A stretch of DNA of 64,000 nt from a virus (taxonomy: Duplodnaviria; Caudoviricetes): positions 161,548 to 225,547 of the IMG/VR virus record IMGVR_UViG_3300028588_000015, one strand, 5' to 3'. Of this stretch, positions 8,488 to 62,931 are shown piece after piece (the first letter of the stretch is position 1; each line of letters starts with the position of its first letter). A program made the translations under genes and the position numbers. The notes below the pieces were generated by a model that was not told the DNA's origin, ran no database searches, and saw nothing but the letters and a program-made list of their open reading frames with translations.

Positions 8488-8499
8488 GCTGTATGCCGT

Positions 8500-9519
8500 T
8501 TATCGAATATTCGGTGCCGTGACGTTGCCAGTTGACTTGATCGAGTCTACCGCCAACATGCCGCCACCCGCAAAGTCAAAACCACCACTCAGCGAGGAGA
8601 TGCTACCGCCCACCGCGAAGCCGCCCGAGAAGGTGGCTTTCTGCGTGACATTAAGTTTACCACTGATGCTGTAGTCACCTTTATGGTTGGTCTTGGCGGT
8701 GATAGTGTTGTCATCCGCTGTCAACTCATTGGTGGACGCCGTGATGACGTTCTTGGTCGCTTTCAAGGTATTGTTGGTAATCGTACCAATCATGTCAGTG
8801 GCGTCGATCGTGACCTTTTTGGATTTAAGAGCAATCAAGTCTTCAGCTTCAAAGTGAATCTCGCGCTTGTCAATCAGGACTCTGGAGCCATCGTTGTTGA
8901 GCATCTCCAGCTGCCGCTCAATCGAATTGAGCATAAACGACTGGCCGAGCGTATCTTGGATTTGCAGGAAGCCTTCGGCGCCATTGATCTGGATATCGAA
9001 ACCGGCTTTTTCTTTATTGGCCACCGAGGTATGTAAGTGGATGATTTTGGTATGGGTCGACAATTCGATGAAGTAACAGTTGTTGATGTCGAATGGCGCC
9101 TTTTCATCAGGATTGGCACTGAACGCCCAGACCACTGTTTCCAACTTACGCAGCCCAAGGTCATCCATCTCGGTCCAGTAATACGGTTCGGCTTCATCGA
9201 ACTGCCAGACCATCACTCGTGAACCGCGACGCAAGTCCGGCGGCGACAAACGGTTGCCGCGGGCAAAAGGTAGCCAGATGGCCTTGATAGAGTTAGAGGT
9301 ATCGGTCTCAACACTATACGCAGAACCATCCATGTCGGTGCCGGATGCCTTCAGCTTTTCGATATTGTCCGACAACTCACCATCGACCATCTGGAGTTGC
9401 TCGACCAAGACCACTTCAATTTCTTCGTTAAACGGTTTCTTGGGGTCGCCTGACGCTAGGGGTTTGTTGGCGGCCACATAGCCAATCGAGCGAAATACCA
9501 AACGAGATGGACTCAACAT
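8500..9519 (-). CDS. Baseplate central spike-like protein (OB-fold plus beta-helix type)
   Basis: C-terminal half has alternating small/hydrophobic beta repeats (NTLKATKNVITASTNELTADDNTITAKT...) as in gpV/gp5-type spikes. Confidence 0.6.
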   Translation of the reverse strand: MLSPSRLVFRSIGYVAANKPLASGDPKKPFNEEIEVVLVEQLQMVDGELSDNIEKLKASGTDMDGSAYSVETDTSNSIKAIWLPFARGNRLSPPDLRRGSRVMVWQFDEAEPYYWTEMDDLGLRKLETVVWAFSANPDEKAPFDINNCYFIELSTHTKIIHLHTSVANKEKAGFDIQINGAEGFLQIQDTLGQSFMLNSIERQLEMLNNDGSRVLIDKREIHFEAEDLIALKSKKVTIDATDMIGTITNNTLKATKNVITASTNELTADDNTITAKTNHKGDYSISGKLNVTQKATFSGGFAVGGSISSLSGGFDFAGGGMLAVDSIKSTGNVTAPNIR

Positions 9520-9590
9520 TTTCTTTTATTCCTTATCAAAAATTACGCACTTGGCACATGCTGTAGGCAAGCAAAACCAATAAGGCTAAC

Positions 9591-12143
9591 ATGAGATACA
9601 TTTCAATCGAAGTCAATCTACTCAAGCGTTTGCGCTTGAGTGGCATTCGGCGTCTCAAAATGACTTTCGAAGAAGTCATGCAACTTATCCTCGGCTCGAA
9701 TGGCAGCGGTAAGTCCTCGTTACTATACGAGGTGTCGATGTTGCCCGCAGAACCTTCGCGTTACGAGAAGGGTGGTAGCGCGATCGTGACGGCCGAAGCC
9801 GACGATGGTTACACTTATACCGCCACCACTGTGTTTGAACCTTCGACACGCTGTAAACTCGTGCGACACACCGACGAGGGGGATGTTGTTCTGAATAACT
9901 GGGGCACAGCATCGGCGCAGCGTTCTGAAGTTGAAAAGATTTTCAAGATGACGCCCGAGGTACGTAACTTGATCCTCGGTAAAGAACGTTTGACCCGCTT
10001 CGGGCCGGGTAAACGACGTGAGTGGTTCATGCGGTTGAACAACGCGAACTATGATTATGCGCTGGCGGTATTTGACCGCGCTAAGAAAGAATTCAACGAT
10101 CTCTCCGCTACGCTGCGTAAGACAAAAGAACGGTTGGTGGCAGAACAAGGTAAGGTCGTCTCACCAGAAGAGGCTAAGAAGCTGCAAGACGAAGTCGACC
10201 AAATGTATCGTGACATGGAAATGTTGTCCGAGAACCGGGCACCTGTCACGCGGGCCTCGCAAACCTACGAGAGCGAACAGAAGCAGCAGCTGGCGGAACT
10301 GGATGCACTCACGAAACAACTTTTCAGGTTGCGGTTTGTGGCGCCGTACGCCGGTCACGCACTGTCCCGGGAACGTCCGTCGTTTGGTTCCTTGATCGAA
10401 ATCAATGCCGAGATCGAGCGCTTGAAAGGTGAACTCATTTCGCGTAACGCTTTGATCGACAAAGCAGTGAAAGAGCATGACCGCCTGCAACAGCAATTCG
10501 ATGTGTTGTCCAAGACCGGTGAACAGGGTTTGGTAGCACTGCATCAGCGCTTTAAGGCAGTGCATTTGCGTAAAATCGATGTCCTCGCCACGAGGACGCT
10601 GGTGGACGTGATCGAGAAACTGGACAGCATCCACCCCATCAATGGTTTGGGCGCACTGGAGTCGCTCTGGGACACGCTGGAAGACCTTTCCAGTTCTATA
10701 CCGGATAACAATGAACGTATCTATGGCCAAGCCAAGATTCCAGCACTGACGGAAGAAATGATGCAGGCCACGCGTGCGTTCAATACCGCCCAAAATGCGT
10801 TGGAGAAACTGCAAGCCCGTAAAGTGCATGCGGAGCAACATCGCGGCAACGGTGAAACCACTTGCCCCAAGTGCGCTTACCGCTGGACGATCGGGTATAA
10901 CGAAGACGAATACAAACGGCTACTCAACGGGATCGCTGTCTACGAAGAACAAGTTGTGCAAGCCAAAGCGGGCATGCGTGACGTAGAAGAACGCATCGCT
11001 AAGAATTACGAGTACGGGGAAAAGTACCGCAGCTTCATCCGGCTGACCCAAGCTTGGCCAGTCCTTGCCCCGCTCTGGGACTATTTGATCGCCAACGAAT
11101 ACATGGTCACCAAAGCACGGATGACCATGGGTTTTGTCGATCGTTTCCGTCATGACCTACAAATCATGAAGGACGCACTGAGACTGGACGCTGAACTCGG
11201 TGAGATTGCCCAATTGATCGAATCGGCAGAAAAGCTCGGGGATGCGTCGCTAACCGACGTGCGTTTGGGACTGGAGCAATGGAACCATGAAGTCGAACAC
11301 CTGAGCCAAGAACGGGTGGCCTTGCAAAAAGACATCAACGACTACCAGACGTACTACCGCCAAATGAGCGAAGGTATCGAACTGGGCCGCCGCATCCGCC
11401 AATTGCGCAGTGACGTGGTGAATGTCAACCAAGAGTGGATTGAGATGTTGCGCCGGGAAACCATCCTGCACTGCATCAATCAGTTGCGCACGTCGCTACT
11501 GCGTAAGGAAGAAACCCTATCTTACATGACCACGCAAAAAGCCCGGGTGGAAGACATTGAAGAACAGATTCGCCAACTCACCATCGAAGAAGAAGCAGCG
11601 CGCTTGGTGGTACGTGAACTGTCACCCACCGAAGGCTTGATCGCCGAAGGGTTGCTGGGTTTCATTCAGCACTTTGTTGGCCAGATGAACGTTGTTATCA
11701 AGCGCATCTGGTCGTACCCGCTGGTGGTGCAAGATTGCGCGATCGAGACGTCGGGCGGCACGGAACTGGATTACAAGTTCCCGGTGGTGGTCAATGATCA
11801 AGATGAGCCAATCGACGATGTGGCCGACGGCAGTACCGGCATCATGGAAATCATTGACTTGGCGTTTCGTATTACCGCCATGCAGTCTTTGGGCTTGGCC
11901 AACAGTCCACTCTTCCTGGATGAATTTGGTGCCAGCTTTGACAAGTACCACCAAAACGCAGCTACCATGACGATTCTGAATATCATGGAGGAACGTCAAT
12001 TCACCCAACTCTTCATGGTGTCGCACTATGAAGCCAGTTACGGTGCAATGACCAACGCAGACATCTGTGTGCTGTGCCCGAGTAACATCACTGTGCCGAG
12101 TGACGGCCTTTACAACCAACATGTAGAAATGGAGTACGCATGA
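9591..12143 (+). CDS. sbcC: SbcC/Rad50-like ATPase (phiKZ gp165-like)
   Basis: Walker A GSNGSGKSS, long coiled coil with central CPKC zinc hook, signature-like DGSTG, Walker B LFLDEFG, H-loop MVSH. Confidence 0.92.
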   Translation: MRYISIEVNLLKRLRLSGIRRLKMTFEEVMQLILGSNGSGKSSLLYEVSMLPAEPSRYEKGGSAIVTAEADDGYTYTATTVFEPSTRCKLVRHTDEGDVVLNNWGTASAQRSEVEKIFKMTPEVRNLILGKERLTRFGPGKRREWFMRLNNANYDYALAVFDRAKKEFNDLSATLRKTKERLVAEQGKVVSPEEAKKLQDEVDQMYRDMEMLSENRAPVTRASQTYESEQKQQLAELDALTKQLFRLRFVAPYAGHALSRERPSFGSLIEINAEIERLKGELISRNALIDKAVKEHDRLQQQFDVLSKTGEQGLVALHQRFKAVHLRKIDVLATRTLVDVIEKLDSIHPINGLGALESLWDTLEDLSSSIPDNNERIYGQAKIPALTEEMMQATRAFNTAQNALEKLQARKVHAEQHRGNGETTCPKCAYRWTIGYNEDEYKRLLNGIAVYEEQVVQAKAGMRDVEERIAKNYEYGEKYRSFIRLTQAWPVLAPLWDYLIANEYMVTKARMTMGFVDRFRHDLQIMKDALRLDAELGEIAQLIESAEKLGDASLTDVRLGLEQWNHEVEHLSQERVALQKDINDYQTYYRQMSEGIELGRRIRQLRSDVVNVNQEWIEMLRRETILHCINQLRTSLLRKEETLSYMTTQKARVEDIEEQIRQLTIEEEAARLVVRELSPTEGLIAEGLLGFIQHFVGQMNVVIKRIWSYPLVVQDCAIETSGGTELDYKFPVVVNDQDEPIDDVADGSTGIMEIIDLAFRITAMQSLGLANSPLFLDEFGASFDKYHQNAATMTILNIMEERQFTQLFMVSHYEASYGAMTNADICVLCPSNITVPSDGLYNQHVEMEYA

Positions 12144-13213
12144 ACCAAGAACCCAAACAAGACGCCAATGAAGTTGTAGGTCTGCGCGAGGCCATCCTGC
12201 GTCTGGCGAGCGCCCAGAACCAAGTGGCGGAGGCCATGTTGGCGATCTACCAGTTGACGAAAGCACAAGGACTCGTGCTCGACCTACTGGTGTCCGAGAA
12301 ACACATCCCGATGGGTGACGCGGGTGGTATGGTGACGACGCTGGTGCCGGAAATCACGACACCAGTACCAGAACAAGATGTTACGCTGGATGACGCGACC
12401 ACGGAGAAGCCGGGCCTAGTCCGTCTCATCATGGCCGCAGGTGCCGGCGAGAAAGAAGCCATCCACCTCTACAATGAAGTTGCTAGGGATGCCAAACAAA
12501 ACGACGTCAGCCCGACACAAAAAGAATCTGGCGATACGGGCGCCGCCGATAATTTCCGCGCCCAGATGACATTCGAAAGCCCGCCACTGGGTGGCCCAAA
12601 GCCGATCGGTTTTGGCGACAACGCTCTGGACAGCGCAGTCGAGAAAGTCAGCGTCCACTATGAAGAGGAAATGGGCGCGCGTCGGACTGAAGTAGCCAAA
12701 CGGCTTGCTGAAGGCACGATTCCAGTCGAGGATACCGTCCCGATGCCCGAAGAAATGCCGCACCCGCAACCTGACCCAGCCGCAAAAAGTTTCAACTATG
12801 TGGCACGGCAGTTGCGGCCCATGCTTCAAGAGTTGTTGTCGCATCACGTGATCGAGAATGGTAAAGGTAATGTCGCGATGAAACACTACAACGCCGACAT
12901 TATGAAAGTGTCGCAGGATCACTGCTTCCGTTGGCCGTCCGGCTTTTACCGTTCCGATGTCGACAACACTGTCCAATTATTCCTGAATATCAAGGAAAAC
13001 AACAGGACGGTATTGTTGATACTGCCTTCGTTATATTCGGCCGGCAAATACCAACAATTGTACGTGACCGAAATGCAGCCGGCCACTATTCTCTGGCGAG
13101 ACGATGGTGGAGTTATCCGGGTAATCAACGACGAGACGCAGATCACTATCCGCGAGACCCTGATGCCATCCTTCGAAAACCTGTTCCGGACGTATCTCGA
13201 AAACCTGAAGTAA
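12140..13213 (+). CDS. Hypothetical protein with acidic, low-complexity central region
   Basis: 357-aa ORF overlapping the sbcC stop by 4 bp; ends at a terminator. Confidence 0.7.
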   Translation: MNQEPKQDANEVVGLREAILRLASAQNQVAEAMLAIYQLTKAQGLVLDLLVSEKHIPMGDAGGMVTTLVPEITTPVPEQDVTLDDATTEKPGLVRLIMAAGAGEKEAIHLYNEVARDAKQNDVSPTQKESGDTGAADNFRAQMTFESPPLGGPKPIGFGDNALDSAVEKVSVHYEEEMGARRTEVAKRLAEGTIPVEDTVPMPEEMPHPQPDPAAKSFNYVARQLRPMLQELLSHHVIENGKGNVAMKHYNADIMKVSQDHCFRWPSGFYRSDVDNTVQLFLNIKENNRTVLLILPSLYSAGKYQQLYVTEMQPATILWRDDGGVIRVINDETQITIRETLMPSFENLFRTYLENLK

Positions 13214-13219: not shown

Positions 13220-13267
13220 CGGCATAAAAAGACCAGCACCTATTTCCAAGGTGCTGGTCTTATGCCG
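13220..13267. terminator. Bidirectional terminator flanked by CGGCATA / TATGCCG
   Basis: CGGCATAAAAA-GACCAGCACC-N9-GGTGCTGGTC-TTATGCCG between convergent genes. Confidence 0.8.
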
Positions 13268-13269: not shown

Positions 13270-13899
13270 TTATGGACGGACGGACGGATTCAACTGCGTT
13301 TGGATGTAATTCGTGAGCGCAGTCACTTGTTGCTGTAAACTGTCTGCTCGGTCGCGCTCGGCAAGAAAACGACCGTAGTCGGTGGTGGTCACCGTCATGT
13401 TGTTTTCTCGTGTAGACTCGATGATGACGTGGTCATCGTACGTTTTCAAAAGCGGCAAAGTGGTGACGATGGTCTTACTGAGTGCATCCACCCCGATCGT
13501 CTCTTTCACCGTTTCTGTCAGACGGAGTTTCAGTGGCGCGATATCGAAATCCATGGGCAGGATAGACAGGTCCAAGGCCACCATCAGGCCTTGGTATTTC
13601 ACGCCATCCACCTGGGGCATCTCGATGAAGTAGGACGATGGCACCACAATCGGCTCACTCACACCCGACTGCAATGTTACCAGAACAGCCCCGGCCACCA
13701 CATCGCGTACGAAATCTGCTTGGCTTAATTCTAGGGGCGTATAGAACATCTCTACCACATCGATGCCATTACCGGAAGCGTCACTGATCGTACGCACGCC
13801 GGTACAGGTGTATTCCAGTTCCGGGTTGAGCAGATTGTCAAGAGGTGCGTCGAGGCGGAACTGCCCCTTGGCACCTACATTGGGCATATAGATCGACAC
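13270..13899 (-). CDS. Conserved jumbo-phage hypothetical/virion protein
   Basis: 209-aa ORF co-transcribed with the upstream gene; C-terminal short coiled coil. Confidence 0.6.
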   Translation of the reverse strand: MSIYMPNVGAKGQFRLDAPLDNLLNPELEYTCTGVRTISDASGNGIDVVEMFYTPLELSQADFVRDVVAGAVLVTLQSGVSEPIVVPSSYFIEMPQVDGVKYQGLMVALDLSILPMDFDIAPLKLRLTETVKETIGVDALSKTIVTTLPLLKTYDDHVIIESTRENNMTVTTTDYGRFLAERDRADSLQQQVTALTNYIQTQLNPSVRP

Positions 13900-17836: not shown

Positions 17837-18322
17837 ATGACTCACCGAGTGTTCCAAAACCGCTCGGTAGGTCTTTGGAGTTTCTTTGCCATGAGTTTAT
17901 CCAATCTGCGGGAGGTAGCAAAACAGAAAGCTGTCCGCTTTTTTGGCGCGCATTTACCGGTTCGTATGAAACGGCTGGTACACATTGCGTCACTCGGAGC
18001 CTATCTCAAAGGCTCGACGTCCCTCGACGACGCCACGATGAACAAGCTCAATACCGTCATGGGATTGGGCAGCAACGCTAAGGCCCTGAAACTGCCTGTG
18101 TTGCTATCACGCGTGATATGGGATGGCAAGATCCAGACACATGATCTCAAAATGGAGACACCGCTGACAGTTACGCCGGAAGTCATGGCGCAAATGAAAG
18201 CACGCTGCATGAAGGGTACACCCCGATGGCTGCGTTATGGTGAGGACACGCTGATCGAAAGCGAAGTGGGCAAACTGCTGACGATGTTCCAAAGTTCGCA
18301 GGAAGTGAAATCTTCGTCATAA
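17837..18322 (+). CDS. Hypothetical protein
   Basis: Likely start MTHRVFQ at 17837 within the track ORF 17708..18322; ends at a terminator. Confidence 0.55.
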   Translation: MTHRVFQNRSVGLWSFFAMSLSNLREVAKQKAVRFFGAHLPVRMKRLVHIASLGAYLKGSTSLDDATMNKLNTVMGLGSNAKALKLPVLLSRVIWDGKIQTHDLKMETPLTVTPEVMAQMKARCMKGTPRWLRYGEDTLIESEVGKLLTMFQSSQEVKSSS

Positions 18323-18326
18323 AAGT

Positions 18327-18376
18327 AAAACACCTATCCCGGACTGGCGGAGTCCCGGGATAGGTGTTTTATGCCG
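18327..18376. terminator. Bidirectional terminator followed by TATGCCG
   Basis: AAAACACCTATCCCGGACT / AGTCCCGGGATAGGTGTTTT stem with one bulge, between convergent genes. Confidence 0.8.
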
Positions 18377-22156: not shown

Positions 22157-22215
22157 ACTCCCATGTAGCCGTTACCGTGAGGTAGCCCCTACATGGGAGT
22201 CTTTCTTTTATGCCG
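22157..22215 (+). terminator. Terminator hairpin plus T tract plus TATGCCG upstream of vRNAP beta-C
   Basis: ACTCCCATGTAG...CTACATGGGAGT then CTTTCTTTTATGCCG. Confidence 0.7.
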
Positions 22216-24255: not shown

Positions 24256-24256
24256 C

Positions 24257-48078: not shown

Positions 48079-48111
48079 TCTATTCTTTTTTTGTTGATTA
48101 GGAGAAAAATA

Positions 48112-48762: not shown

Positions 48763-48765
48763 ACC

Positions 48766-49423: not shown

Positions 49424-49446
49424 CCAATTTTAAGAAAGAGTAAATC

Positions 49447-49746: not shown

Positions 49747-49801
49747 AGAATTGAAAGGAAAAGAAATCGACACCGATCTCGACAACATAAAAGGAGAATA
49801 G

Positions 49802-50212
49802 ATGTATTTACCAATTGCTATTCACAAAGACCCCAATAGCAGCTACGGAGTGGCAATCCCCGATGTAGTAGGCTGTTTCTCGGGAGGTACTACCATCGAA
49901 GAGGCAATGGAGAATGCGCAGAAAGCAGTCTACGCGCATCTCGCTGCCGCCGAAGCCGTAGGAATACCCTTCGAAGTCAAAGCATCTTCGGTTCAGGAGT
50001 TAATGGAAAAAGAACCGAAAGCATATGCTGGGGCAATGTGGGCTTACATCAGAATTGACTTGGCAGAAATGAATTCAAAAACGGCCCGTATTAACGTTTC
50101 GGCCAATAGTCAAGCAATTGAAAGGATTGATAACTATCTGAAGAATCGTCCTGAAAATCGCAGCGAGTTTTTGATTCAGTCCGCACTCGCCATTATCGAT
50201 AAATCGGCATAA
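49802..50212 (+). CDS. hicB: HicB-like antitoxin with C-terminal ribbon-helix-helix domain
   Basis: YGVAIPDVVGCFSGG.TIEEAMENAQKAV is the HicB N-terminal fold; RINVS......ID.......RSEFL is RHH-like. Confidence 0.85.
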   Translation: MYLPIAIHKDPNSSYGVAIPDVVGCFSGGTTIEEAMENAQKAVYAHLAAAEAVGIPFEVKASSVQELMEKEPKAYAGAMWAYIRIDLAEMNSKTARINVSANSQAIERIDNYLKNRPENRSEFLIQSALAIIDKSA

Positions 50213-50258
50213 AGGAAAATAAAAGCCACACCCAGTTACGGGTGTGGCTTTTATGCCG
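50205..50258. terminator. Bidirectional terminator flanked by CGGCATA / TATGCCG
   Basis: TAAAAGCCACACCC-N6-GGGTGTGGCTTTTA between convergent genes. Confidence 0.85.
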
Positions 50259-50293
50259 CGAACTTAAGGAGCCGAGGCTCCTTTTTCTTTGGC

Positions 50294-51169
50294 TTAGAAA
50301 CGAACGGCTTGGGCGCCCAGCTGCTCGACGTTGGCCTTGTAGCCGGCCGCAGCCGCTTGCACGGCAGCGTCGATCTGCGAGACGAACGCCGGACGGTTCC
50401 ACGGGTTCGCGCCACTGATCTGTACGCTTTGCAGGACTTCACGGGCCAGGTTGTTCACGCCTTGGCCTTGCTGAGTCAGCGCGGCGAACTGGATGCTGAC
50501 CATCTTCTGCTCGGCCGCTTGGGTGAGGTCGCGCTTGGCGGTGATCTCGCCCGTGCTCTTCGGCCAGAAGTTGGCGACCAGGTACGCCTGCACCGGGTTC
50601 AGCATGGTGGCGTCCGGTTCCACGAACAGTACCGTACCCGCATACAGATCGGCCAGGTGGTCGGTCGGACGGGTGATGCCGGTCATGGTCATGATGTCCG
50701 GGTAGCCCGTCTGCGGATTGATCATGAACGTGCGCACGAAGGTACGCCAGAAGTTGGCGATCGACATGTTGTACTTCTCGGGCCACTCGCCTTGCGGTTG
50801 GGTCCGCGCCTCGGTGGCTTTCGTGAAGTCTTCCATCATCTGGCCCGAACCACCGACCGCGTTCTCGATGACTTCCAGTTCGTAACCGCCTTGGAAGCCG
50901 GTCCACGATTGGCAGTGCAGTTCGATCAGGGCCTTGTAGGCGATGATCCAGGCACGCTTGTCGGCGTCCGGCAGCAGGTCGAATGCTTTCGGATACTCGA
51001 TCACGAACGAGATCAGGTTCTTCTGGACGTACGCTTGCGTGCTGATCCATTGGGTGAAGTCCGGCGACAGACCGTTCATGCCGCCGTATGCGAGGTTCAG
51101 GGATTGGTTGAGAATCCCCAGCTGCGGGCCGGAGCCCGGTTTCATCAGGGTGTCTGCGAAGCGGCTCAT
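50294..51169 (-). CDS. Tail tube protein (phiKZ gp30-like)
   Basis: 291 aa, directly downstream of the sheath, strong codon bias. Confidence 0.8.
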   Translation of the reverse strand: MSRFADTLMKPGSGPQLGILNQSLNLAYGGMNGLSPDFTQWISTQAYVQKNLISFVIEYPKAFDLLPDADKRAWIIAYKALIELHCQSWTGFQGGYELEVIENAVGGSGQMMEDFTKATEARTQPQGEWPEKYNMSIANFWRTFVRTFMINPQTGYPDIMTMTGITRPTDHLADLYAGTVLFVEPDATMLNPVQAYLVANFWPKSTGEITAKRDLTQAAEQKMVSIQFAALTQQGQGVNNLAREVLQSVQISGANPWNRPAFVSQIDAAVQAAAAGYKANVEQLGAQAVRF

Positions 51170-51170
51170 A

Positions 51171-53252: not shown

Positions 53253-53471
53253 GGTGGTATCCTGTCACTGGTGAATAAATGGTATGGTTTCTGGGACGAT
53301 GCCTTGCATCATAATAATGTAATTTTTTACTTCGGTTACTGCGAGTAATAAAAAGCATTCGCCCGGTAAAATAAATAGGCCGAAAACGTATTTATTTAAC
53401 ATAGGATGATGCAAGAGCGTGGGCATGTTGCCCTTTCTTGTGCCCCTTCTCTTTTTACTTAGGAATGCATC

Positions 53472-54419
53472 ATGACGATTTACCATACTGCTTACGACAC
53501 GACGCAATGCGAAGGCTTCGGCCCGGGCGTGAATAAAACACAACAACAGATGCAAGCAGCCATCGCCATGGGCGCGCTGATCTACGCCTCACCTGATATG
53601 CTGCTTGTCTACGACGGTGATAACTACCGTAATGCGATCGCGGGTTTTACCCATCCGATGCGGGTATCGAACAAGCCTTCGCAAGAAAAAGGTGACCGCC
53701 AAGCACTGGCCATCGATGTGCGTCCGTTCGGTAGCTGGAGCCGCAACCAAAACAAATTCGTCGTGCGCGACGAATCGCAAATGATCATGGCACTCCTGCG
53801 GCTGCGCTTGAGTTCGATCTGGTTGACCGAAGAACGGTCGTATCTGCGCAACGTCTCGCCGATCCCGATCAAGATGTTCGCCAGCTGGATCATGGAGTCC
53901 CTGGCCAACAAGTTCGCCCTCGAACCACTCGAGCGCATGAACGTGTCGATTTTGGCGGGTGTTCTATACCTGTCCAACTTCAGTGACACCACCGAACTGG
54001 ACGAAAACGAGCGCACCCGCTTGGCGGCATCGCTCAGCCGTGACCTCGCCATTGATGTCAAGGAAATCCTGCCGGTGGTTGACCAGTACCCGAGCCTTGC
54101 TGGCGTCGACGCTTTCTGCAAAGCGGCCAGTGCAATGTGCGGTGTGCGTCTGGCTGAACTGAATCGCGGCCTCTTGTACGCGTCGCTGGGTGGCTCGTGG
54201 TTCGGTTATAACTTCAAAGAAGTGCTCGCGGTTGCATTGGAACACCCGCCGACCTGGCTGGCCATCGTCTACACAGCGGGTACCGACCGGTCGTATCGCA
54301 ACACGCGCCTGTTCAAGACGTTTGAGAACAACAGCCGCGGCGGTACCGACGACCTGTTCAAAAATTCACTGAAGCGCTTGGTGGACAACCTGGCACCGCT
54401 CACCACCGCCGACCTCTAA
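53472..54419 (+). CDS. Conserved virion/baseplate protein (phiKZ gp28-like)
   Basis: 315 aa; syntenic position divergent from the sheath. Confidence 0.55.
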   Translation: MTIYHTAYDTTQCEGFGPGVNKTQQQMQAAIAMGALIYASPDMLLVYDGDNYRNAIAGFTHPMRVSNKPSQEKGDRQALAIDVRPFGSWSRNQNKFVVRDESQMIMALLRLRLSSIWLTEERSYLRNVSPIPIKMFASWIMESLANKFALEPLERMNVSILAGVLYLSNFSDTTELDENERTRLAASLSRDLAIDVKEILPVVDQYPSLAGVDAFCKAASAMCGVRLAELNRGLLYASLGGSWFGYNFKEVLAVALEHPPTWLAIVYTAGTDRSYRNTRLFKTFENNSRGGTDDLFKNSLKRLVDNLAPLTTADL

Positions 54420-54441
54420 ACTCCAGTCTCCAGTCAATCCG

Positions 54442-54474
54442 GCCACTCTGTCGCCTTAGCCGCGACAGAGTGGC
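54442..54474 (+). terminator. Intrinsic terminator
   Basis: GCCACTCTGTCGC-N7-GCGACAGAGTGGC then TATTCTTTT. Confidence 0.7.
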
Positions 54475-54497
54475 TATTCTTTTGTCAAAGGTTCGTC

Positions 54498-57071
54498 ATG
54501 AGTTTAGACTATATCGTCAATCATGCCATTCTGAATGCATGGTGCAATCCGAAACAGGATTTGCAATCCATCGTCAAACCGAAGCGCATCACGCGCAAGA
54601 TCGGCGTATGGGGTGACTTCGACGCCGGCAAGATCAATTACCTGTTGCCTGACAAGACCAGCCGGTTCCATGTGTTTCAGGTTGGCCAATTGAGTCCAGC
54701 ACTGATGGGACTGATGGAAACGAATGGCCTGTGGTTCAACGTGGCGGACACCTGCCACAAGAAGAAGCTGGTCGTGGACATTTATAGTCAGTTCGGTATC
54801 GAGTTTCCGCGCACCCAAACGTGGTACATGGTAACGCGCAACCGTAACTTGATCTTCGCGATTAAGGAAGTACCGAGTATTTCGGTGAGTCTGCGCGAGG
54901 TTGACATCTTCTTGCGGGTCTACACCAACGCTTTCTTCCAAAGCCGCCGTGCCGGTATCAACGTCGACGACATCAAAGTCACGGGGCAGGCAATCAGTAC
55001 CACCGACGACGTTCTGAAGTTGCAAAACATGCTTACCGCATGGCAAACACTGCCGGGTGTGGCCTACGCCTTTGTGAATGGCTATAAAGTTTCCCACGTG
55101 ACCATGTTCTCGGCCAAAGTGGGCGATTACGTCGAACTGGTGTACGACAGTTCTGTTGAGCGCATTGTTGATTTCCCGCTAAAGGATCTGAAAGCGTTCA
55201 ACAGCACCCTCGACAAAAAAGTCAAGTACCTGTTGCATTACCCGGGCCAAGGCTCGGGGACGATCGACTACCATGACGACATCGATTTCTTTTTGGTGCG
55301 GCGTAATCCCCGCAATGGCCGGCACCGGGGCGTGTACTACCACCGCAATGCACAACAAGCGGATGCAGTGCGGATGGTGACCCACAAAGATTACGCGATC
55401 CCGGTCGATTACATCGATGCGTACTTGGATTCCCAGACGGCGTGGAATTTTGAAGAAGTTTTGCTGCGCATGCATGTACGCCAATCAGGTTACCACCGCC
55501 CCCTGATCGACGAAGCCAACCGCATCAAAGAACTGTACAAGATGAAAGATGCAGACATCGCTGAAGCCCTGCTCTCGGTCGATGCAGTCGTACCTAACTG
55601 GACGGCGGCGACACTGGAAGCGTCAGCCTACGCAGAAGTCATGCGTTCGCCCACGGCCAACATGAGCCCACGTCTGGTTCAGGATGCCTATGGCTACAAC
55701 GCCATCAGCAAGCTGCTGTGCGACAGTCCGCTGTTCATAGTGGTCAATTCGGGGCAACGTACGGTGAACCTGCCGTACGGCCTGCAAGTTCGCTGCGGTG
55801 CGTATGAGTACGATGCCAGTGGGTTCTTGCTCGGTTATTACCAACACACCCAAGGCGCGCTGTATTCGGCGCGCAACAAGAATACGCGCTTGGTGGAATT
55901 CGTGGCCGGGATTCTTAGCACTCAACTGGAAGAAACCTACGGGGCACAGGAAGTCGAAATCGATGCCGCCGTCGATTACCGTTTCTACACCTGCGGCATC
56001 GAGTACGACGGCACGATCAATAACAAATGGGTCGATGTCACGGATACGGCGTTGTACGCTATCGTGGACAACAAGGTGACGTGGTTCACCAATCCCGCGA
56101 CGACCTACACCTTGGTGCGTGGTAACAGTCGGTTCTTGGCGTATAGCCTTAATCTCGACAACAGCGATGGCTTGGTGCGCTTTTCGTTGACGCATCTCGC
56201 CATGCGCGGCGGAACGCTTGGTAACCACGTGATGCAAATCCCGATGGGTGAATTGGATGTTTTTATGAATGGCCGCTCCTTGATCAAGGATGTCGACTAC
56301 TATGTGGACTTCCCCGTGGCCGTGGTCACCAACAAAGCTTATCTGAGTGCAGGTACCACCCAGCACATCGATGTGCGATTCACCGGCTTTTGTCACAGCG
56401 ACATGAGCATGGAACGTTTTGATGAGAATGGTTTCATCGATCACGGCCTACTCTCGTCGAACAACCGTTTCGACATTCGGGACGACAAGATTCAGCGCAT
56501 CACGGCGGGTGGTGCGCTGTACGAGCGACAGGAACTGTTGTTTGCAGAGGACGATCTAGGCGTGCGGGTGCCGGATGCTCGCAATGGCTTACCGTATTCG
56601 ATTCGTGACGTGATCGCACCACTGCGCGGTATTGCAGCGGACGACACGTACACCCTGCGCGCCAAGTCAGTAGCGACGGACAAAGTCGTCAGAAATTACC
56701 TCACCCAGAAGTTGCCACAGCAAACGTTCAATACACCGAACGCCATCAAGGATTTGTATCCGGTCTTCAGCCCGTTCTGTGCCAAGATTTTGTTTGACCT
56801 CAAGAACGGCAACCTGAATGACCCGCGCTTGAAGGCGTTTTACAGCGACAGCGATGTCTATGACATATGCGAGCCGTACGAAGCGCTGCTCAAATGCGAC
56901 CCGACGCAAGATGGGTTGCAGCCGGACCTCAACTACGTGGCCGTTCACCCTCACCAGCTTAACACCGTGGTGGATGTCGACATCTACGGTTACAAATTCC
57001 TCACCCGTGTGGTGAAACTGTATCTGAAGGGCCGTGTGAACTTGTCGCAGTTCATCCGCCTTTCGGCTTAA
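54498..57071 (+). CDS. Virion structural/baseplate protein (phiKZ gp27-like)
   Basis: 857 aa; synteny in the terminase-sheath block. Confidence 0.6.
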   Translation: MSLDYIVNHAILNAWCNPKQDLQSIVKPKRITRKIGVWGDFDAGKINYLLPDKTSRFHVFQVGQLSPALMGLMETNGLWFNVADTCHKKKLVVDIYSQFGIEFPRTQTWYMVTRNRNLIFAIKEVPSISVSLREVDIFLRVYTNAFFQSRRAGINVDDIKVTGQAISTTDDVLKLQNMLTAWQTLPGVAYAFVNGYKVSHVTMFSAKVGDYVELVYDSSVERIVDFPLKDLKAFNSTLDKKVKYLLHYPGQGSGTIDYHDDIDFFLVRRNPRNGRHRGVYYHRNAQQADAVRMVTHKDYAIPVDYIDAYLDSQTAWNFEEVLLRMHVRQSGYHRPLIDEANRIKELYKMKDADIAEALLSVDAVVPNWTAATLEASAYAEVMRSPTANMSPRLVQDAYGYNAISKLLCDSPLFIVVNSGQRTVNLPYGLQVRCGAYEYDASGFLLGYYQHTQGALYSARNKNTRLVEFVAGILSTQLEETYGAQEVEIDAAVDYRFYTCGIEYDGTINNKWVDVTDTALYAIVDNKVTWFTNPATTYTLVRGNSRFLAYSLNLDNSDGLVRFSLTHLAMRGGTLGNHVMQIPMGELDVFMNGRSLIKDVDYYVDFPVAVVTNKAYLSAGTTQHIDVRFTGFCHSDMSMERFDENGFIDHGLLSSNNRFDIRDDKIQRITAGGALYERQELLFAEDDLGVRVPDARNGLPYSIRDVIAPLRGIAADDTYTLRAKSVATDKVVRNYLTQKLPQQTFNTPNAIKDLYPVFSPFCAKILFDLKNGNLNDPRLKAFYSDSDVYDICEPYEALLKCDPTQDGLQPDLNYVAVHPHQLNTVVDVDIYGYKFLTRVVKLYLKGRVNLSQFIRLSA

Positions 57072-57081
57072 TGGAGAAACT

Positions 57082-58761
57082 ATGTCCGAAATCAATTCTA
57101 CCGGTGTTGTCGGCAGTCTCGATAACAAAGAGCCGGTGTACGACCCCAACCGTGGATGGCGCACTTGGGCGCTGTTCGAGATATTCCAGGGCGACATCGG
57201 TGAAGGCAAATTCGTACCGAACGTCAAAGATCGCGTGCTCGATACCGATACCGAAACCTACTGGCGTGTGGTCAGTATCGACCCCACGACGCTGGTACCG
57301 ACCCTGGTGAAAGCCACCCCGACAGTGGTGGACGGGGTCTTCAGTGAAGAAGACGTGCTGCTGGGTGTCGGCCCGGGCCCGCAAAACAACACCTATTTTG
57401 CGTACCTGAACGACAAAGTGCTGCCGTTCTCGATGACAATCGACATGCGTTGTTTCATCTGGTACTCGCGTGCCAAGTACGCGCGCGTCATGCGCGGGGG
57501 TGTGGCCGGTGCAGCGAGCCGGGTGGTCAGCGCTGTGTACGATGCCTCCGGCAATCTGGTCGGCCAGGACATCCCGCTGGAACTGGCCGAGTTCGTGGGC
57601 AACAAAACCCGCAAGGTCGTGCCGCCGTTCAAGTGTACCGAACGCATTCCCAACGGTGAACCGGTTTACGTCGTGTTCTACGACGATGCCAACCAAATTC
57701 TATCCAAGCGTCAGGTGTTGGTGGAAAACAGCGACTTCATCGCTGTGCCGAATACGGGTGTCAAGTACATTAAGGACGTGTATCTCGATACGCCATTCCT
57801 GTCGGCGTCCGACGCGACACTGCTCCAGTACCCGATCAACGTACTGATGCAGGGCCTGAACATGATGGGTGTGGTCGAATACAGTGACGGCACCAAAGCA
57901 CGTTTGCCGATCGACGGTACCAAGTTTGAACTGTTCGGTCTGGAAGACTACCTGTTGTCGGTCGTGGGGCAAGAACTGCCACTTGTTCTGAACTACAACA
58001 TGTCCAGCGAGGAAGTGGCATCGGGACCTGAGATCGGTGAGAACCGCAACATCCCCAAGAAGTACCGTGCCAAAACGCTGGTGGCGAATGGTTCGTACTC
58101 GGTCAAACTGTTCACCTTCCCAGTATGGATCGGCGAGCAAGATGGTTACCGTCTCGAATGGTTCCTGACCAATCTGGAACGCACCAACATCTGGCGCTGC
58201 ACCTCGCAAGTGCGGATCAACGAAGGTGGCCGGCAATTCAGTCCCAGTGAATATGGTACCAACCAGCGCCTCGTGGTGTCGGTTGACCTGCAATCGGTCA
58301 ACCCGTCATTCAACAAGTACAAGCATGTGCAAACTCTCGATGTCACCCTGTTGGCACCGGGCACAGACCACAACACCAACTGGCAAATCGGTTTCCAGCC
58401 GGGACAGAACCCGCCGTTTGGTGTCCAAAACTATGCGGCAACGACCTTCGTCGATGTCAACAACTGGAAGGTCAAGATCGACATGGGCTTGACTGACGTG
58501 AACCTGTGGCTCGAACGGGTGTTCTACCGCACACTACCGCTGTTTGATCCGCAGAAAGAAGCCAAGGCGCCAGCACCGACGCACTTCGCGTTCGACTTCG
58601 TGGGACGCTCGATCGAATTCCCGATTGCGGAATGGAAGACCGAGCACACCATCAGCGAAGCAGTGGCTAACGGCGGTACGCTGTTCGTCCGGTTCTTCAA
58701 GCGCACGCCGGATAACGACATTCAGTTGTCGATCTGCGGTCTGCCGATCTACCAAGCATAA
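57082..58761 (+). CDS. Virion structural/baseplate protein (phiKZ gp26-like)
   Basis: 559 aa; immediately upstream of terminase. Confidence 0.6.
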   Translation: MSEINSTGVVGSLDNKEPVYDPNRGWRTWALFEIFQGDIGEGKFVPNVKDRVLDTDTETYWRVVSIDPTTLVPTLVKATPTVVDGVFSEEDVLLGVGPGPQNNTYFAYLNDKVLPFSMTIDMRCFIWYSRAKYARVMRGGVAGAASRVVSAVYDASGNLVGQDIPLELAEFVGNKTRKVVPPFKCTERIPNGEPVYVVFYDDANQILSKRQVLVENSDFIAVPNTGVKYIKDVYLDTPFLSASDATLLQYPINVLMQGLNMMGVVEYSDGTKARLPIDGTKFELFGLEDYLLSVVGQELPLVLNYNMSSEEVASGPEIGENRNIPKKYRAKTLVANGSYSVKLFTFPVWIGEQDGYRLEWFLTNLERTNIWRCTSQVRINEGGRQFSPSEYGTNQRLVVSVDLQSVNPSFNKYKHVQTLDVTLLAPGTDHNTNWQIGFQPGQNPPFGVQNYAATTFVDVNNWKVKIDMGLTDVNLWLERVFYRTLPLFDPQKEAKAPAPTHFAFDFVGRSIEFPIAEWKTEHTISEAVANGGTLFVRFFKRTPDNDIQLSICGLPIYQA

Positions 58762-58809
58762 TCCCCGCCGCCGCCCTTGTTTCGACAGGGACGGCAATAG
58801 GAGAGACTC

Positions 58810-61071
58810 ATGAGTAGCATCATTTTGTTTGCGGACGACTGGTTGAAATTCCCGACCGCTCGTCCAGACTGGGATACGAAGAATGAAAGCTTCGTGCGCA
58901 TGGCCGCACTGTTGCATTCGATGGGCGTGAAAAATTGCTGCTTCTTTCTGGCCCTCCTGAACCCGCGTCTGAAAGGAGTGGACCCCCGCAGTAAAGATTT
59001 GACGGTCGAACAAATGACCGACATCGGGGTAGAATGTAAACTCAACCCATGGTACTTCTTCCGTGAAGTGGCGCTGGCACCAGGTAACGGTAGTAACGAT
59101 GGCGTGATGGTGGAAGCCAATCGCGGCAACATTTGTCTCTGGTGGTTGTTCTTCAACCACATCACGGTGTTCTTGATTCAGATTCGTCAGACGGGTAAAT
59201 CATTTTCGACCGACGTATTGATGGTATTGCTGATGGAATTCATCTGTGAGAAGACCGTCATCAACTTGTTAACGAAAGATGATACGCTGCGACGCTCGAA
59301 CATTGAGCGTATGAAGTCGATTATCGCTGACTTGCCCAAGTACCTGCAATTGAAGCATCCGGACGATGCCAATAACACGGAAGAAATTACCGTGATGGCC
59401 CAAGGCAACCGATACAAAACGCACGTGCCGCAGCAGTCGGCAAAACGCGCAATCAACATGGGTCGTGGTTTGACTTCGCCGATCTTCCAAATTGACGAAG
59501 CCCCATTCCAGCCGAACATTGAGATTGCACTGCCCGCCGCACTGGCAGCAACGGGTGCGGCCGTCGATCGTGCAAAAGAACAGGGTTCGCCGTACGGTAC
59601 CATCTTCACGACAACCGCGGGTAAGAAAGACGATAAAGACGGTGCGTATATCTACCGTTTGATTTCGAATTCAGCAATCTGGTCAGAAGCGTTTTACGAC
59701 GCCAAAGACCAAGTGGAACTGGAAAGCCTGATCGCCTCCGGTTGCCGAGCTGAAGGCAAGATCAAAACGATCGCTGTGAACGCCACCTTTAACCACCGCC
59801 AGTTGGGTAAGACGGACGATTGGTTGGCAGAGAAGTTGGCGAAGTCGTTTGCAACCGGTGAAGATGCAAACCGAGACTACTTTAACATGTGGACCTCGGG
59901 TAGCCAAACCTCACCGCTGCCGATGGAAGTGTTGGAAGCAATGGCGCGGTCGGTCAAGGATGTGGCGTATACCGAAATCAGTCGGCCGTACAATTACATC
60001 ACGCGTTGGTACATTCCGAAGCATCAAATCGCAGAGCGCATGGCCACTGGTAAGTTTGTGATGGGCATGGACACCAGTGAGGCGATTGGACGAGATGAAA
60101 TTTCGCTCGTCTTGATGGATGTGGAAACCTTGGAAGTAGTAGCAGCCGGTTCGTATAACGAATTGAACTTGATTACGTTCTCGGAGTGGCTCTGTGACTT
60201 CATGATACGCTTTGAAAACGTGACCGGTATCATTGAACGCAAATCGACTGGTGGTATGATTTTGGATTACCTGATCCTGTTCCTCAATAAAGCCGGGATC
60301 GATCCATTCAAACGTCTATTCAACTGGTATGTGAATGATCAAGCGGTGCAAAAGGAACGGTTCAGGGAACTGTGCCAAGTACCCTTGGGTCGTCGACCGT
60401 ATGGCTGGATCGACCGCGTCAAACGTTTGTTCGGGTTTGCCACGGCAGGATCGGGTGCAACGTCGCGTTCTGAACTCTACTCGACCACGCTACAAAATGC
60501 GGCGCGCCTCGGGATGAACACAATGAACGATAAGGCACTGGTCGACCAGACCGCAGGCTTGGTCACGAAGAACGGTCGTGTGGACCACCCTCCCGGTGAA
60601 CACGACGACATGACCATCGGCTGGTTGTTGGTCAACTGGTTACTCACCCAAGGTACCAACTTGGTACACTACGGGATCGATCCCGGTAAAATCATGAGCC
60701 GTGTTTCGCGCACGGGCAAACAGAAGACACCGGACGAACTGTGGGAAGAAGAGGAACAGGCAGACTACCGGGCACGGATGGAAATCCTGATCGAAAGGCT
60801 GCGCCAAGAACCAGACGAATTCGTTTCGCAAAAGCTGGAACAAGAACTGCGCATGATTGACCGCCGTATTGTGCGCGATGTGGGCGAAACCCATAGCTTG
60901 GACCAACTCTTGCAAAACGTAAAGGAAGCAAAGTGGCAGCGGCGCCGCGATGCACAAAAGTTCACTGGCAACCATCGCCCTCCACCGAGTGCGGCTGCGC
61001 CAAGTGCGGGCCAAGGGTACGGATTCTATACCAACGAATCTCCCCACTGGAACCGTAACCGTCGTTTCTAA
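58810..61071 (+). CDS. terL: Terminase large subunit (phiKZ gp25-like)
   Basis: Walker A IRQTGKS, Walker B FQIDEAP, motif III TTTAG, nuclease MGMDTS ... HDDM. Confidence 0.93.
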   Translation: MSSIILFADDWLKFPTARPDWDTKNESFVRMAALLHSMGVKNCCFFLALLNPRLKGVDPRSKDLTVEQMTDIGVECKLNPWYFFREVALAPGNGSNDGVMVEANRGNICLWWLFFNHITVFLIQIRQTGKSFSTDVLMVLLMEFICEKTVINLLTKDDTLRRSNIERMKSIIADLPKYLQLKHPDDANNTEEITVMAQGNRYKTHVPQQSAKRAINMGRGLTSPIFQIDEAPFQPNIEIALPAALAATGAAVDRAKEQGSPYGTIFTTTAGKKDDKDGAYIYRLISNSAIWSEAFYDAKDQVELESLIASGCRAEGKIKTIAVNATFNHRQLGKTDDWLAEKLAKSFATGEDANRDYFNMWTSGSQTSPLPMEVLEAMARSVKDVAYTEISRPYNYITRWYIPKHQIAERMATGKFVMGMDTSEAIGRDEISLVLMDVETLEVVAAGSYNELNLITFSEWLCDFMIRFENVTGIIERKSTGGMILDYLILFLNKAGIDPFKRLFNWYVNDQAVQKERFRELCQVPLGRRPYGWIDRVKRLFGFATAGSGATSRSELYSTTLQNAARLGMNTMNDKALVDQTAGLVTKNGRVDHPPGEHDDMTIGWLLVNWLLTQGTNLVHYGIDPGKIMSRVSRTGKQKTPDELWEEEEQADYRARMEILIERLRQEPDEFVSQKLEQELRMIDRRIVRDVGETHSLDQLLQNVKEAKWQRRRDAQKFTGNHRPPPSAAAPSAGQGYGFYTNESPHWNRNRRF

Positions 61072-61073
61072 CA

Positions 61074-61121
61074 CGGAATAAAGCCCCCTCCTAGCGTTCT
61101 GCCGGGAGGGGGCTTATGCTG
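61074..61121. terminator. Bidirectional terminator with variant flanks CGGAATA / TATGCTG
   Basis: AAGCCCCCTCC...GGAGGGGGCTT. Confidence 0.75.
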
Positions 61122-61132
61122 CAATTTCTGGG

Positions 61133-61522
61133 TCAAGCTATAGACATGCGTGCAATCACAAGATCGAGGTAAGCAGAGATGGCACTGATACGCTGTAAGC
61201 TGTCGTCCACAAAAAGTGGCAACTGAGCAGGTATATCAATCTCCAACTTACAGGCTTGGATGATATCGCCGGGTGCATTGGCACTTACCACGCTAAAGAC
61301 GTGGTATATCACAAAATGCCGGTTCAGTGCCGACCAGCGGTGATATACCCGACAGTATTGCTTACGTTGGCAATAAATGTGGATTTCATAATCGGCAAAC
61401 GACTGGCCGACCAGATGGCTGATATCTTGGCCACCTGCGTCGATACGGACGAACGTTTGCCCCCCTTTGATTCTCTCCAGAAAAACCACGAACAATGATA
61501 ACAGCCGATTGAAAATCGCCAT
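61133..61522 (-). CDS. Hypothetical protein
   Basis: 129 aa; hydrophobic N-terminus. Confidence 0.55.
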   Translation of the reverse strand: MAIFNRLLSLFVVFLERIKGGQTFVRIDAGGQDISHLVGQSFADYEIHIYCQRKQYCRVYHRWSALNRHFVIYHVFSVVSANAPGDIIQACKLEIDIPAQLPLFVDDSLQRISAISAYLDLVIARMSIA

Positions 61523-61552
61523 GACTGTCCCCTAGAGAGCCAGTATTGGATT

Positions 61553-62881
61553 TTACGCGTGCGTGGCGTAGTGGTGCATGGTAAACGCCCGCAATACGAT
61601 GTAGAGCAGGATACCGGTACGAACACTCGCGATGACGTGGTCATTCCGGTTTGCTGTGGCACGCTCTACGACACGCTCGGCCGTTTCACGCAAATGGAAC
61701 AATTCAGGGTCGGTAGAACGCGATGAGGTATACACGCCCCGTAGTCGACTGAGCAGTTCTGCAAGATTGGTATTCTTGCTCACCAGTTCGCGATTGTCCG
61801 CCAGATAAGCAAACGCATGGACCAACACCTTATCCAGAACTTCTTCGATGTCTTTGGATTGGCGGTGGTTGTAATTATCCGACATGTACTCGAGCGTCTT
61901 GCGGAACAAAGACTCTGGCATGGTTTGCATGGCTGAGCCCACCACATCGACCAACTCTTCCCGGATAAAGGAGTTGCGGTCAGAGATCACCGAACGAATG
62001 TACGTACCATACGCACTTAGGTTCTTGGTCTTGTCACGCAAGATTTCTGCGCCGTCGTGCTCCACCACAGCACTGGTGGAATAAATCCGGGTACCCTGTC
62101 GATGGACCTGCATGAACACCTCGTAGATGTTTTTCATGACGTCCCGGATACGCCCTTGGACATCATTGAGCATGTCTTGGATATCGTCGTCATTATCGAA
62201 CTTACGAATCGTCTCGTAATGGATACCACCTTCTTTCGCGGGCTTGATGATTTCTTCAGCCCGGTAGCGGAAGAATTCCGACCAGTTCTTGAGTTGCTTA
62301 ATCAGGAAGCGACCGGAGAGCGATGCGTAAGTGGCTTCGGCCACAGCTGGATCAGCGGGATAGCGGAAGTACTGGAACAGCAAGCTGGTGAGGAATTTGT
62401 ATTGCAAGGCCAGCAGTACGTCGACCATTGCTTCTTCCTTGACTTTCTCACTGATAAACTTGCTGTGGAAGATGGCGTGTAACAACCATACGACCGACAA
62501 GTTCATTGTGTCGCTGGAAACGATACGCTTGTCAAAGTCAATGCGAGTACCGACTTCTTTGCCGCGCTCGTCGTAAACTTTGAGTTGGGCCAGCCGGCCA
62601 CCAAGTGGACCTTCTTCAGCTTGAAGAACTTCTTCGAACCAGCGGCTACGGTCACTGGCATAAAAACGAACCGTCTGCACACCCAACAGGTGGCCACCGA
62701 AAAACTCGATGTGTTCACGGTTTTTGTTGACAAAAGAGACGTGGTACAAGTGCACTGTTCTTGCAAACCGTGCATCAATTTTCAACGCTTTGCATTCATC
62801 GTCGAAAATGCTTTTGATGGATTCGGACATGGGGCCGCTCTCGTAAAAAAGAGGTGGATACACAAGATTAGCGCTTTTCAT
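61553..62881 (-). CDS. Conserved jumbo-phage protein near terminase, function unknown (start 62881 or 62830)
   Basis: 442-aa ORF with normal codon usage; all-helical appearance. Confidence 0.6.
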   Translation of the reverse strand: MKSANLVYPPLFYESGPMSESIKSIFDDECKALKIDARFARTVHLYHVSFVNKNREHIEFFGGHLLGVQTVRFYASDRSRWFEEVLQAEEGPLGGRLAQLKVYDERGKEVGTRIDFDKRIVSSDTMNLSVVWLLHAIFHSKFISEKVKEEAMVDVLLALQYKFLTSLLFQYFRYPADPAVAEATYASLSGRFLIKQLKNWSEFFRYRAEEIIKPAKEGGIHYETIRKFDNDDDIQDMLNDVQGRIRDVMKNIYEVFMQVHRQGTRIYSTSAVVEHDGAEILRDKTKNLSAYGTYIRSVISDRNSFIREELVDVVGSAMQTMPESLFRKTLEYMSDNYNHRQSKDIEEVLDKVLVHAFAYLADNRELVSKNTNLAELLSRLRGVYTSSRSTDPELFHLRETAERVVERATANRNDHVIASVRTGILLYIVLRAFTMHHYATHA

Positions 62882-62898
62882 GTCCTGTAAGAAATATG

Positions 62899-62931
62899 CG
62901 GCATAAAGACCAGCACCCGTAGGTACTGGTC
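62899..62931 (-). terminator. Terminator plus TATGCCG on the minus strand
   Basis: Minus strand GACCAGTACC-TACG-GGTGCTGGTC-TTTATGCCG; the single stem mismatch is a G-U wobble only on this strand. Confidence 0.75.

Follow-up and report, generated by a model that had tools for sequence, protein, structure and literature searches.

TATGCCG as the probable 3' half of hairpin terminators in a putative phiKZ-like jumbo phage

The DNA analysed here, called the window, is a stretch of 64,000 nucleotides from a virus of the Caudoviricetes (IMG/VR record IMGVR_UViG_3300028588_000015, positions 161,548 to 225,547 of that record), and the element under study is the heptamer TATGCCG, called the box, which recurs beside intergenic hairpins. 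The main transcription terminator of this phage very probably has the box as its 3' half, an explanation which includes pausing of the polymerase at the box. The terminator is built of a GC-rich hairpin of arbitrary sequence, 0-4 pyrimidines (mostly TT) and then TATGCCG. Judged by its sequence, the box appears to be the GC-rich form of the terminator box known from phages phiKZ and 201phi2-1, ie a new example of a published signal. Positions are those of the window unless given as genome positions.

Source of the sequence

The record is a single contig of 225,547 bp from a leaf-litter metagenome, probably assembled from the DNA run X1, and the window covers its last 64 kb. Its genes include those for a homologue of the RNA polymerase (RNAP) beta subunit (phrog_3148, E = 0), for the tail sheath and for the large terminase. 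The best relatives of the window are Burkholderia phage FLC9 (50% identical in the protein compared), Ralstonia phages RP12/RP31 and RSL2, Xanthomonas phages and further phiKZ-like jumbo phages. On the basis of these genes and relatives, the genome appears to be that of an uncultured phiKZ-like (chimallivirus-type) jumbo phage. Searching a phage collection by megablast with 6 kb of the sequence gave no match, no relative was found when viral contigs were scanned with the tail-sheath protein, and Rfam at its gathering thresholds reported no family within the window.

Phages of the phiKZ-like group transcribe their genes with multisubunit RNA polymerases of their own. Homologues of these enzymes are encoded here, namely phrog_3148 and, outside the window at genome 138983-140647, a homologue of GP123, a beta-like subunit of the non-virion RNAP of phiKZ (E = 5.8e-60, 28% identity). 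Transcription in phiKZ is independent of the host RNA polymerase and is carried out by two phage-encoded polymerases (PMC4666361). The genome studied here has a GC content of 53%, against 37% in phiKZ.

Frequency and consensus of the box

Exact copies of the box were confirmed on the plus strand at 8492, 13261, 18370, 22209, 28436, 46813 and 50252, and its complement, CGGCATA, at 13220, 24218, 48029, 50205 and 62899. The five near-variants which the initial annotation had placed at 18315 (CGTCATA), 28394 (CGGCAAA), 48072 (TATGTCG), 61074 (CGGAATA) and 61115 (TATGCTG) were also found. It had further claimed that each copy lies close to a hairpin, and each listed copy was indeed found within 0-8 nt of a hairpin whose free energy was between -14 and -30 kcal/mol (energies and spacings are from RNAfold-based measures). 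Two more exact copies, at 2306 (minus strand) and 14281 (plus strand), are intragenic, are without a hairpin and look like chance occurrences. The window's 14 exact copies compare with 6.85 +/- 2.67 in shuffled sequences, and none of 100 shuffles reached 14.

The whole genome contains 59 copies, 39 of them intergenic, though by our own gene calls intergenic DNA makes up 8.6% of the genome. Forty of the 59 sit 0-12 nt 3' of a clean hairpin, with a median free energy of -20.7 kcal/mol. An unbiased scan of the sequence following hairpins returned TTATG, TATGC and TATGCC as the top enriched words. The extended consensus is T-T-TATGCCG-N-N-T, a T being present at -1 and at -2 in 32 of 43 copies each and three bases after the box G in 28 of 43, while a T immediately after the G is not conserved. 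One-mismatch variants were found at other true terminators (TATTCCG, TTTGCCG, TATGCGG, TATGCCC, TATGCCT, TATGACG, TATGTCG and TATGCTG). None of the positions of the box is invariant. The sole return of a literature search for the heptamer was a PCR primer in the announcement of a Klebsiella phage.

Placement at gene ends

When one mismatch was tolerated, the box was present on the plus strand at 12 of the 16 convergent junctions, on the minus strand at 14 and on both strands at 11. It was found at roughly a quarter of the tandem junctions. The 15 divergent junctions contained four one-mismatch matches and no exact copy. The box therefore marks 3' ends and not promoters, being frequent where genes converge and lacking an exact copy where they diverge. 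As in terminators of the phiKZ type, a stem-loop adjoins it, it stands at the 3' ends of transcription units, and between convergent genes it is arranged for both directions.

Use of the ATG within the box as a start codon was also considered, since at 22210 and 48073 it shares the reading frame of the gene downstream. This was ruled out because the box is without a ribosome-binding site, good ones are present at the downstream starts, and most boxes face a convergent gene.

Hairpins, spacing and partner sequences

In 35 of the 40 hairpin-linked copies, 0-4 nt separate the box from the GC core of the stem. Stems and loops are otherwise unrelated among the copies, and the common part is the heptamer with its flanking T's. 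Ten of the 40 form five exact palindromes, CGGCATA...TATGCCG, in eight the partner has one mismatch, and the remaining 22 are partnerless. The initial annotation had noted that several copies are without a complementary partner. Genome-wide that observation stood, but it failed at 24218, which has a degenerate partner, TATTCTG, at 24258-24264. That partner still fits TTATKYYG, the relevant part of the phiKZ terminator consensus. Because the stems are unrelated and 22 of 40 copies are partnerless, extension of the stem cannot explain the conservation of the box.

Two pairs of hairpins have stem sequence in common, 13230-13260 with 62908-62931 (AGACCAGCACC...) and 46789-46812 with genome 148448-148473 (AAGGAGAAGCTTCGGCTTCTCCTT versus AAGGAAAAGCTTCGGCTTTTCCTT), and may be duplicated terminators. 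A palindrome bound by a dimeric protein was considered as well, and was rejected on the variable spacing of the half-sites (41-47 nt) and the fact that most copies are single.

These terminators resemble canonical intrinsic terminators in having a hairpin and a release point 6-9 nt further on, where the hybrid is weak and U/A-rich, and in that some of those of 201phi2-1 work with the host RNAP. They differ in that most have no U-tract directly 3' of the stem (tails read, for example, ggctgTATGCCG, ccaccTATGCCG and gctctTATGCCG) and carry a fixed non-U heptamer instead. A generic scan for a hairpin followed by a U-tract gave no excess (28 against 23.7 expected) and missed most of the box terminators. 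With at least 5 T in 8 after the stem, it misses the boxes at 46813, 50252 (plus strand), 61115 and 62899. Another class of terminator in this genome has a hairpin followed by TTTTTTCTTTG and is without TATGCCG. It is found at 50266-50292 and at genome 88324-88790, 113962-114700, 124258-124620 and 187778-188380, and its T-rich tract is also the spacer in five box terminators in which the box stands further from the stem.

Comparison with phiKZ and 201phi2-1

In phiKZ, 133 termination sites were mapped by ONT-cappable-seq (Putzeys et al. 2024, PMC10914365), with a terminator consensus, derived from 61 sites, of BCCYCCCCHWWDGGGRRGGBYTTATKYYGT (PMC10914365). Motif A of 201phi2-1 (n = 59) 'strongly resembles' the phiKZ terminator motif (PMC11512511). 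Our TTATGCCG fits TTATKYYG exactly, and the variants TATGTCG, TATGCTG and TATTCTG fit too. In all three phages a GC-rich stem-loop directly precedes (Y)TTATKYYG(T) at the ends of transcription units, often in both directions between convergent genes. All are phiKZ-like phages with RNAPs of their own, and the numbers of sites are similar (about 50 here, 61 in phiKZ and 59 in 201phi2-1). Unlike in phiKZ, the YY of the consensus is nearly always CC here, in a genome of much higher GC content. The stems here are diverse, in contrast to the recurring GGGAGGGC and GCCCTCCC of phiKZ, and the T after the G is not conserved, a T three bases later being favoured instead.

The pattern was also seen directly on the phiKZ genome, where at 100-150 kb of NC_004629 hairpins are followed by TTATGTTG, TTATGTCG or TTATGCTG. 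Termination coordinates were taken from Table S4 of the preprint 10.1101/2023.10.13.562163, and those at 100-150 kb were placed on the same sequence. Where the tail reads TATG or TTTAT, the last base of the RNA falls inside it. The 3' ends, marked by a slash, are ...ttttatgC/tg, ...attatgtC/g, ...tttatgtT/g, ...cattaT/gttg, ...cttatgaC/g and ...cttatgT/tg, and at three degenerate sites the end is at the T of TTTAT. At the placed sites the 3' base was a pyrimidine in every case, 6-9 nt past the stem, and the next base was G in four of the six TATG-bearing sites. The terminal RNA:DNA hybrid is thus formed by the opening bases of the box, in the position of a U-tract, and the RNA stops at or before the last conserved bases. 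A signal that is read while transcription proceeds, as DNA or as hybrid, is favoured by this over one read in the finished RNA. The suggestion in the initial annotation of a sequence-specific termination signal for the phage RNAP gained support from this position of the box, from its place at gene 3' ends, from the match to the phiKZ consensus and from the phiKZ RNA ends inside the box.

Conservation among jumbo phages

In a word scan of a 50-kb sample per phage, TTATG or TATGC was the top or a near-top word after hairpins in phiKZ, FLC9, RP12, RSL2, Xoo-sp14 and Klebsiella phage Eowyn. Strong hairpins in these phages are followed by TATGCCG, TATGCCC, TATGACG, TATGCTG or TATGTCG, often without the T before the box. 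The sample of Bacillus phage AR9 (26.5% GC) contained T-rich tails only and no box. Xoo-sp14, Eowyn and phiKZ use nearly one stem (GGGAGGG(G)C-loop-G(C)CCCTCCC) at many terminators, while the stems of FLC9 and RP12 are diverse, as they are in the present phage.

The end of the tail-sheath operon could be compared directly at orthologous positions in six phages. The stems are unrelated and TATGCCG is present in five of the six, RSL2 having TTTTTGCCG, which argues that selection acts on the heptamer itself. It is kept at orthologous and at non-orthologous terminators, among phages with about 40-50% protein identity.

Proposed mechanism and points against it

On the explanation preferred here, the polymerase would transcribe the hairpin and go 3-6 nt into the box, where a weak rU/rA-rich hybrid (UUUAU) would substitute for the U-tract. 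The steps from pyrimidine to G within the box (TAT/G and CC/G) would hold the enzyme 6-9 nt past the stem, and the hairpin would then release the RNA. Multisubunit RNAPs reportedly share a consensus elemental pause, G-10 Y-1 G+1 (Larson 2014; Vvedenskaya 2014). The phiKZ ends resemble it in having a box pyrimidine as the last base, G as the next base at four of the six TATG sites, and a stem G about 10 nt upstream, but for polymerases of the phiKZ type this likeness is an analogy only. A pause or release signal for the polymerase is our best guess as to why the exact sequence is kept. We infer the pausing, the identity of the polymerase concerned and the same behaviour in the present phage from these comparisons. 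The box or a close variant closes the operons of the tail sheath and the terminase and also a short operon that starts at a putative early promoter at 46841 (see below), so both the virion and the non-virion polymerase probably respond to it.

Several observations weigh against this explanation. Intragenic copies (eight sense and eight antisense) show no clear depletion against the roughly 26 expected from a Markov model, from which it follows that the heptamer alone is inert. In five of the 40 hairpin-linked copies the box is 9-12 nt behind a TTTTTTCTTT tract, where termination would be expected before the box is reached. Two hairpin-linked boxes outside the window, at genome 100269 and 110287, point against both flanking plus-strand genes; either antisense transcripts may be stopped there, or gene calling may have missed small genes on the minus strand. 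Eight terminators of 201phi2-1 function in uninfected Pseudomonas chlororaphis (PMC11512511), and a reading of the box specific to phage polymerases is therefore not needed for termination as such. Nanopore 3' ends do not separate termination from cleavage or processing, and trimming by a base or two is possible. Finally, the sole RNA run, a leaf-litter metatranscriptome, gave five short contigs over 44000-63900, which are unable to show RNA ends.

A more specific possibility, which we hold to be rather unlikely, is that the box is a polymerase-specific pause-and-release signal on the DNA, with the non-template TATG bound again in a beta-lobe pocket of the GP123 type or the enzyme stalled at the pyrimidine-G steps. 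The non-template TATG of phiKZ late promoters sits in a pocket of the GP123 beta-like subunit (PMC12809450). The GP123 homologue of this phage retains the pocket residues F151, H185, H331, S144, S334 and Q466 in a weak pairwise alignment (27% identity), which lends weak support to a shared pocket. If true, one recognition event would serve both initiation and termination, and a stall 6-9 nt past the hairpin would replace the U-tract. It would also explain the conserved bases beyond the RNA 3' end in phages of Pseudomonas, Burkholderia, Ralstonia, Xanthomonas and Klebsiella, and the absence of the box from AR9, whose non-virion RNAP reads promoters differently.

A signal acting in the RNA, either a processing site or a 3'-tail binding site for a phage protein (for stabilisation or export from the phage nucleus), seems improbable to us. 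A hairpin with a short conserved tail is a plausible handle for a protein, and the limit of the nanopore data mentioned above leaves room for cleavage. However, phiKZ RNAs end inside the box, so that its last conserved bases (Y, G and T) are mostly outside the RNA, the box is exactly at U-tract distance from the stem, and terminators of this kind are active in uninfected Pseudomonas.

Re-initiation and neighbouring promoters

The initial annotation had also proposed that the terminator is combined with re-initiation, the TATG of the box serving as a late start (+1 at G) for the non-virion RNAP. Late promoters of phiKZ require TATG, have +1 at the G and show no conservation after TATG (PMC4666361). 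The tetranucleotide TATG is what the box has in common with them (Yakunina 2015; GP123 pocket, IUCrJ 2026), along with a polymerase of the same family in this phage. Also in favour are the pocket residues kept by the GP123 homologue, the 17 hairpin-linked copies followed by a gene on the same strand, and the phiKZ late starts P049 and P075, which use a second TATG 5-10 nt past a box. Against it, of 119 published phiKZ start sites that were compared (P008-P126) not one is at the G of a hairpin-adjacent box, and re-initiation at the TATG of the box is therefore unsupported. The late promoters of phiKZ stand upstream of late genes without a hairpin (P119L among them) and have no counterpart of the conserved CCG, whereas the box is at 3' ends and is commonest at convergent junctions, where re-initiation would give antisense RNA alone. 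Re-initiation at the box is accordingly very unlikely. What survives of the proposal is that separate promoters are often found 5-45 nt downstream of terminators, several early and late starts of phiKZ being 20-45 nt downstream of a box.

Such a neighbouring promoter is suggested in the present phage by the motif A-rich...gtCACATAT(Y)AC, which occurs about 17 times in the genome, always on the plus strand and with a start codon 45-180 nt further on. In upstream regions CACATAT is enriched above all other 7-mers, with 15 of its 25 genomic copies there, and CACATAT(Y)AC resembles the core of the phiKZ early (virion RNAP) promoter, TATATTAC. Copies of the motif are at, for example, genome 245, 2536, 7493, 17877, 26263, 38388, 84151 and 90195, at genome 114744, 122289, 124640, 137693 and 157271, and in the window at 24781-24790 and 46841-46850. 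At six sites, 46841 included, it follows a box by 25-35 nt. By its sequence the motif is probably a separate, early-type promoter next to the box, and the box itself would not be a promoter. Sigma-70-like promoters were not enriched (9 against 11.8 expected).

Terminators with a promoter close behind are also reported from T4-type phages (Arbiol et al. 2010), in which near-identical repeats called PeSL (promoter-early stem-loop) are thought to mediate recombination. The six sites with box and CACATAT are like PeSL in placing a terminator hairpin closely before an early promoter at the boundaries of early modules. They are unlike PeSL in that the stems are unrelated, the spacing varies from 25 to 35 nt, and most boxes are not followed by a promoter.

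The idea that the box has no specific function and arose as a by-product of palindromic stem extension or base composition, or as a spreading repeat (REP, MITE or PeSL-like), draws on the five perfect palindromes that lengthen the stem and on the two hairpin pairs with common stem sequence, but can be dismissed in view of the 22 partnerless copies, the unrelated stems, the shuffles, the absence of any homology beyond the heptamer and its flanking T's, and the conservation of the heptamer at terminators of distant phages.

Terminators and promoters of the window

On the plus strand, the gene at 7201-8436 would end in a one-directional terminator at 8447-8498, with a hairpin at 8447-8489 and the box at 8492-8498 (dG -28.9, gap 2). 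The box abuts the stop of the convergent gene 8500-9519. Between the convergent genes 12140-13213 (plus) and 13270-13899 (minus) is a predicted bidirectional terminator, 13220-13267, made up of CGGCATA, a hairpin at 13230-13260 and TATGCCG. The one predicted at 18315-18376, also between convergent genes, has CGTCATA (TATGACG on the minus strand), a hairpin at 18328-18369 and TATGCCG at 18370, and its variant box at 18315 shares bases with the TAA stop codon of gene 17891-18322. At 18320-18322, and again at 50210-50212, the TAA stop of the upstream plus-strand gene is provided by the complement of the box (CGNCATAA). A putative one-directional terminator between tandem plus-strand genes, 22157-22215 (plus strand), consists of a hairpin at 22157-22200 (dG -29.5), an 8-nt T-rich spacer and TATGCCG at 22209.

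The convergent genes 23511-24227 (plus) and 24257-24718 (minus) appear to share a terminator on both strands, 24218-24264, with the minus-strand box at 24218-24224, a hairpin at 24226-24256 and TATTCTG on the plus strand. The early-promoter-like motif CACATATCAT at 24781-24790 (plus strand) precedes gene 24847 by 66 nt, and the divergent region in which it lies has no box. For the convergent genes 26869-28392 and 28444-30591 a bidirectional terminator is predicted at 28394-28442, with CGGCAAA, a hairpin at 28400-28431 and TATGCCG at 28436, this box standing behind a TTTTTCTTT tract.

Gene 45975-46784 would end in a one-directional plus-strand terminator at 46789-46819, in which a hairpin with a TTCG loop (46789-46812, dG -24.6) is followed by TATGCCG with a gap of 0. 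The early-promoter-like motif CACATATCAC is at 46841-46850 on the plus strand, 28 nt past the box, and gene 46940 begins about 99 nt further on; terminator and motif appear from their sequences to form a terminator/early-promoter cassette. Gene 47474-48016, in a tandem plus-strand context, belongs to the two-gene unit behind this putative promoter and is followed at 48029-48078 by a predicted palindromic terminator on both strands (CGGCATA, hairpin 48042-48071, TATGTCG at 48072). The metatranscriptome contigs are at 44689-44909, 47424-47574, 47806-48032, 48943-49093 and 60475-60728, with matches of 99-100%, and the deepest of them (7.9x) covers the 3' part of that gene.

Gene 49802-50212 (plus) and the tail-sheath operon (minus) meet at a predicted bidirectional terminator, 50205-50283, with CGGCATA overlapping the TAA stop, a hairpin at 50222-50251 and TATGCCG at 50252. 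After this box there is a second hairpin, 50266-50283, with a TTTTCTTTG tail. The terminase gene, 58810-61071, is followed at 61074-61121 by a putative palindromic terminator on both strands, with CGGAATA (TATTCCG on the minus strand), a hairpin at 61082-61114 and TATGCTG on the plus strand. The last predicted terminator, 62899-62931, is one-directional and lies between tandem minus-strand genes, with a hairpin at 62908-62931 and TATGCCG, on the minus strand, at 62899-62905.

Implications

The box bears on how the RNA polymerases of nucleus-forming jumbo phages stop transcription, for which published work describes the motif and not the mechanism. It survives a shift from 37% to 53% GC and complete turnover of the hairpin, and is common to phages of at least five host genera, which argues for direct selection on its sequence. 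It offers compact terminator parts and a clean mutational target for phiKZ RNAPs in vitro. For chimallivirus genomes, a hairpin followed by TATGYYG is a better predictor of terminators than U-tract-based tools, and the box delimits operons in uncultured jumbo phages.

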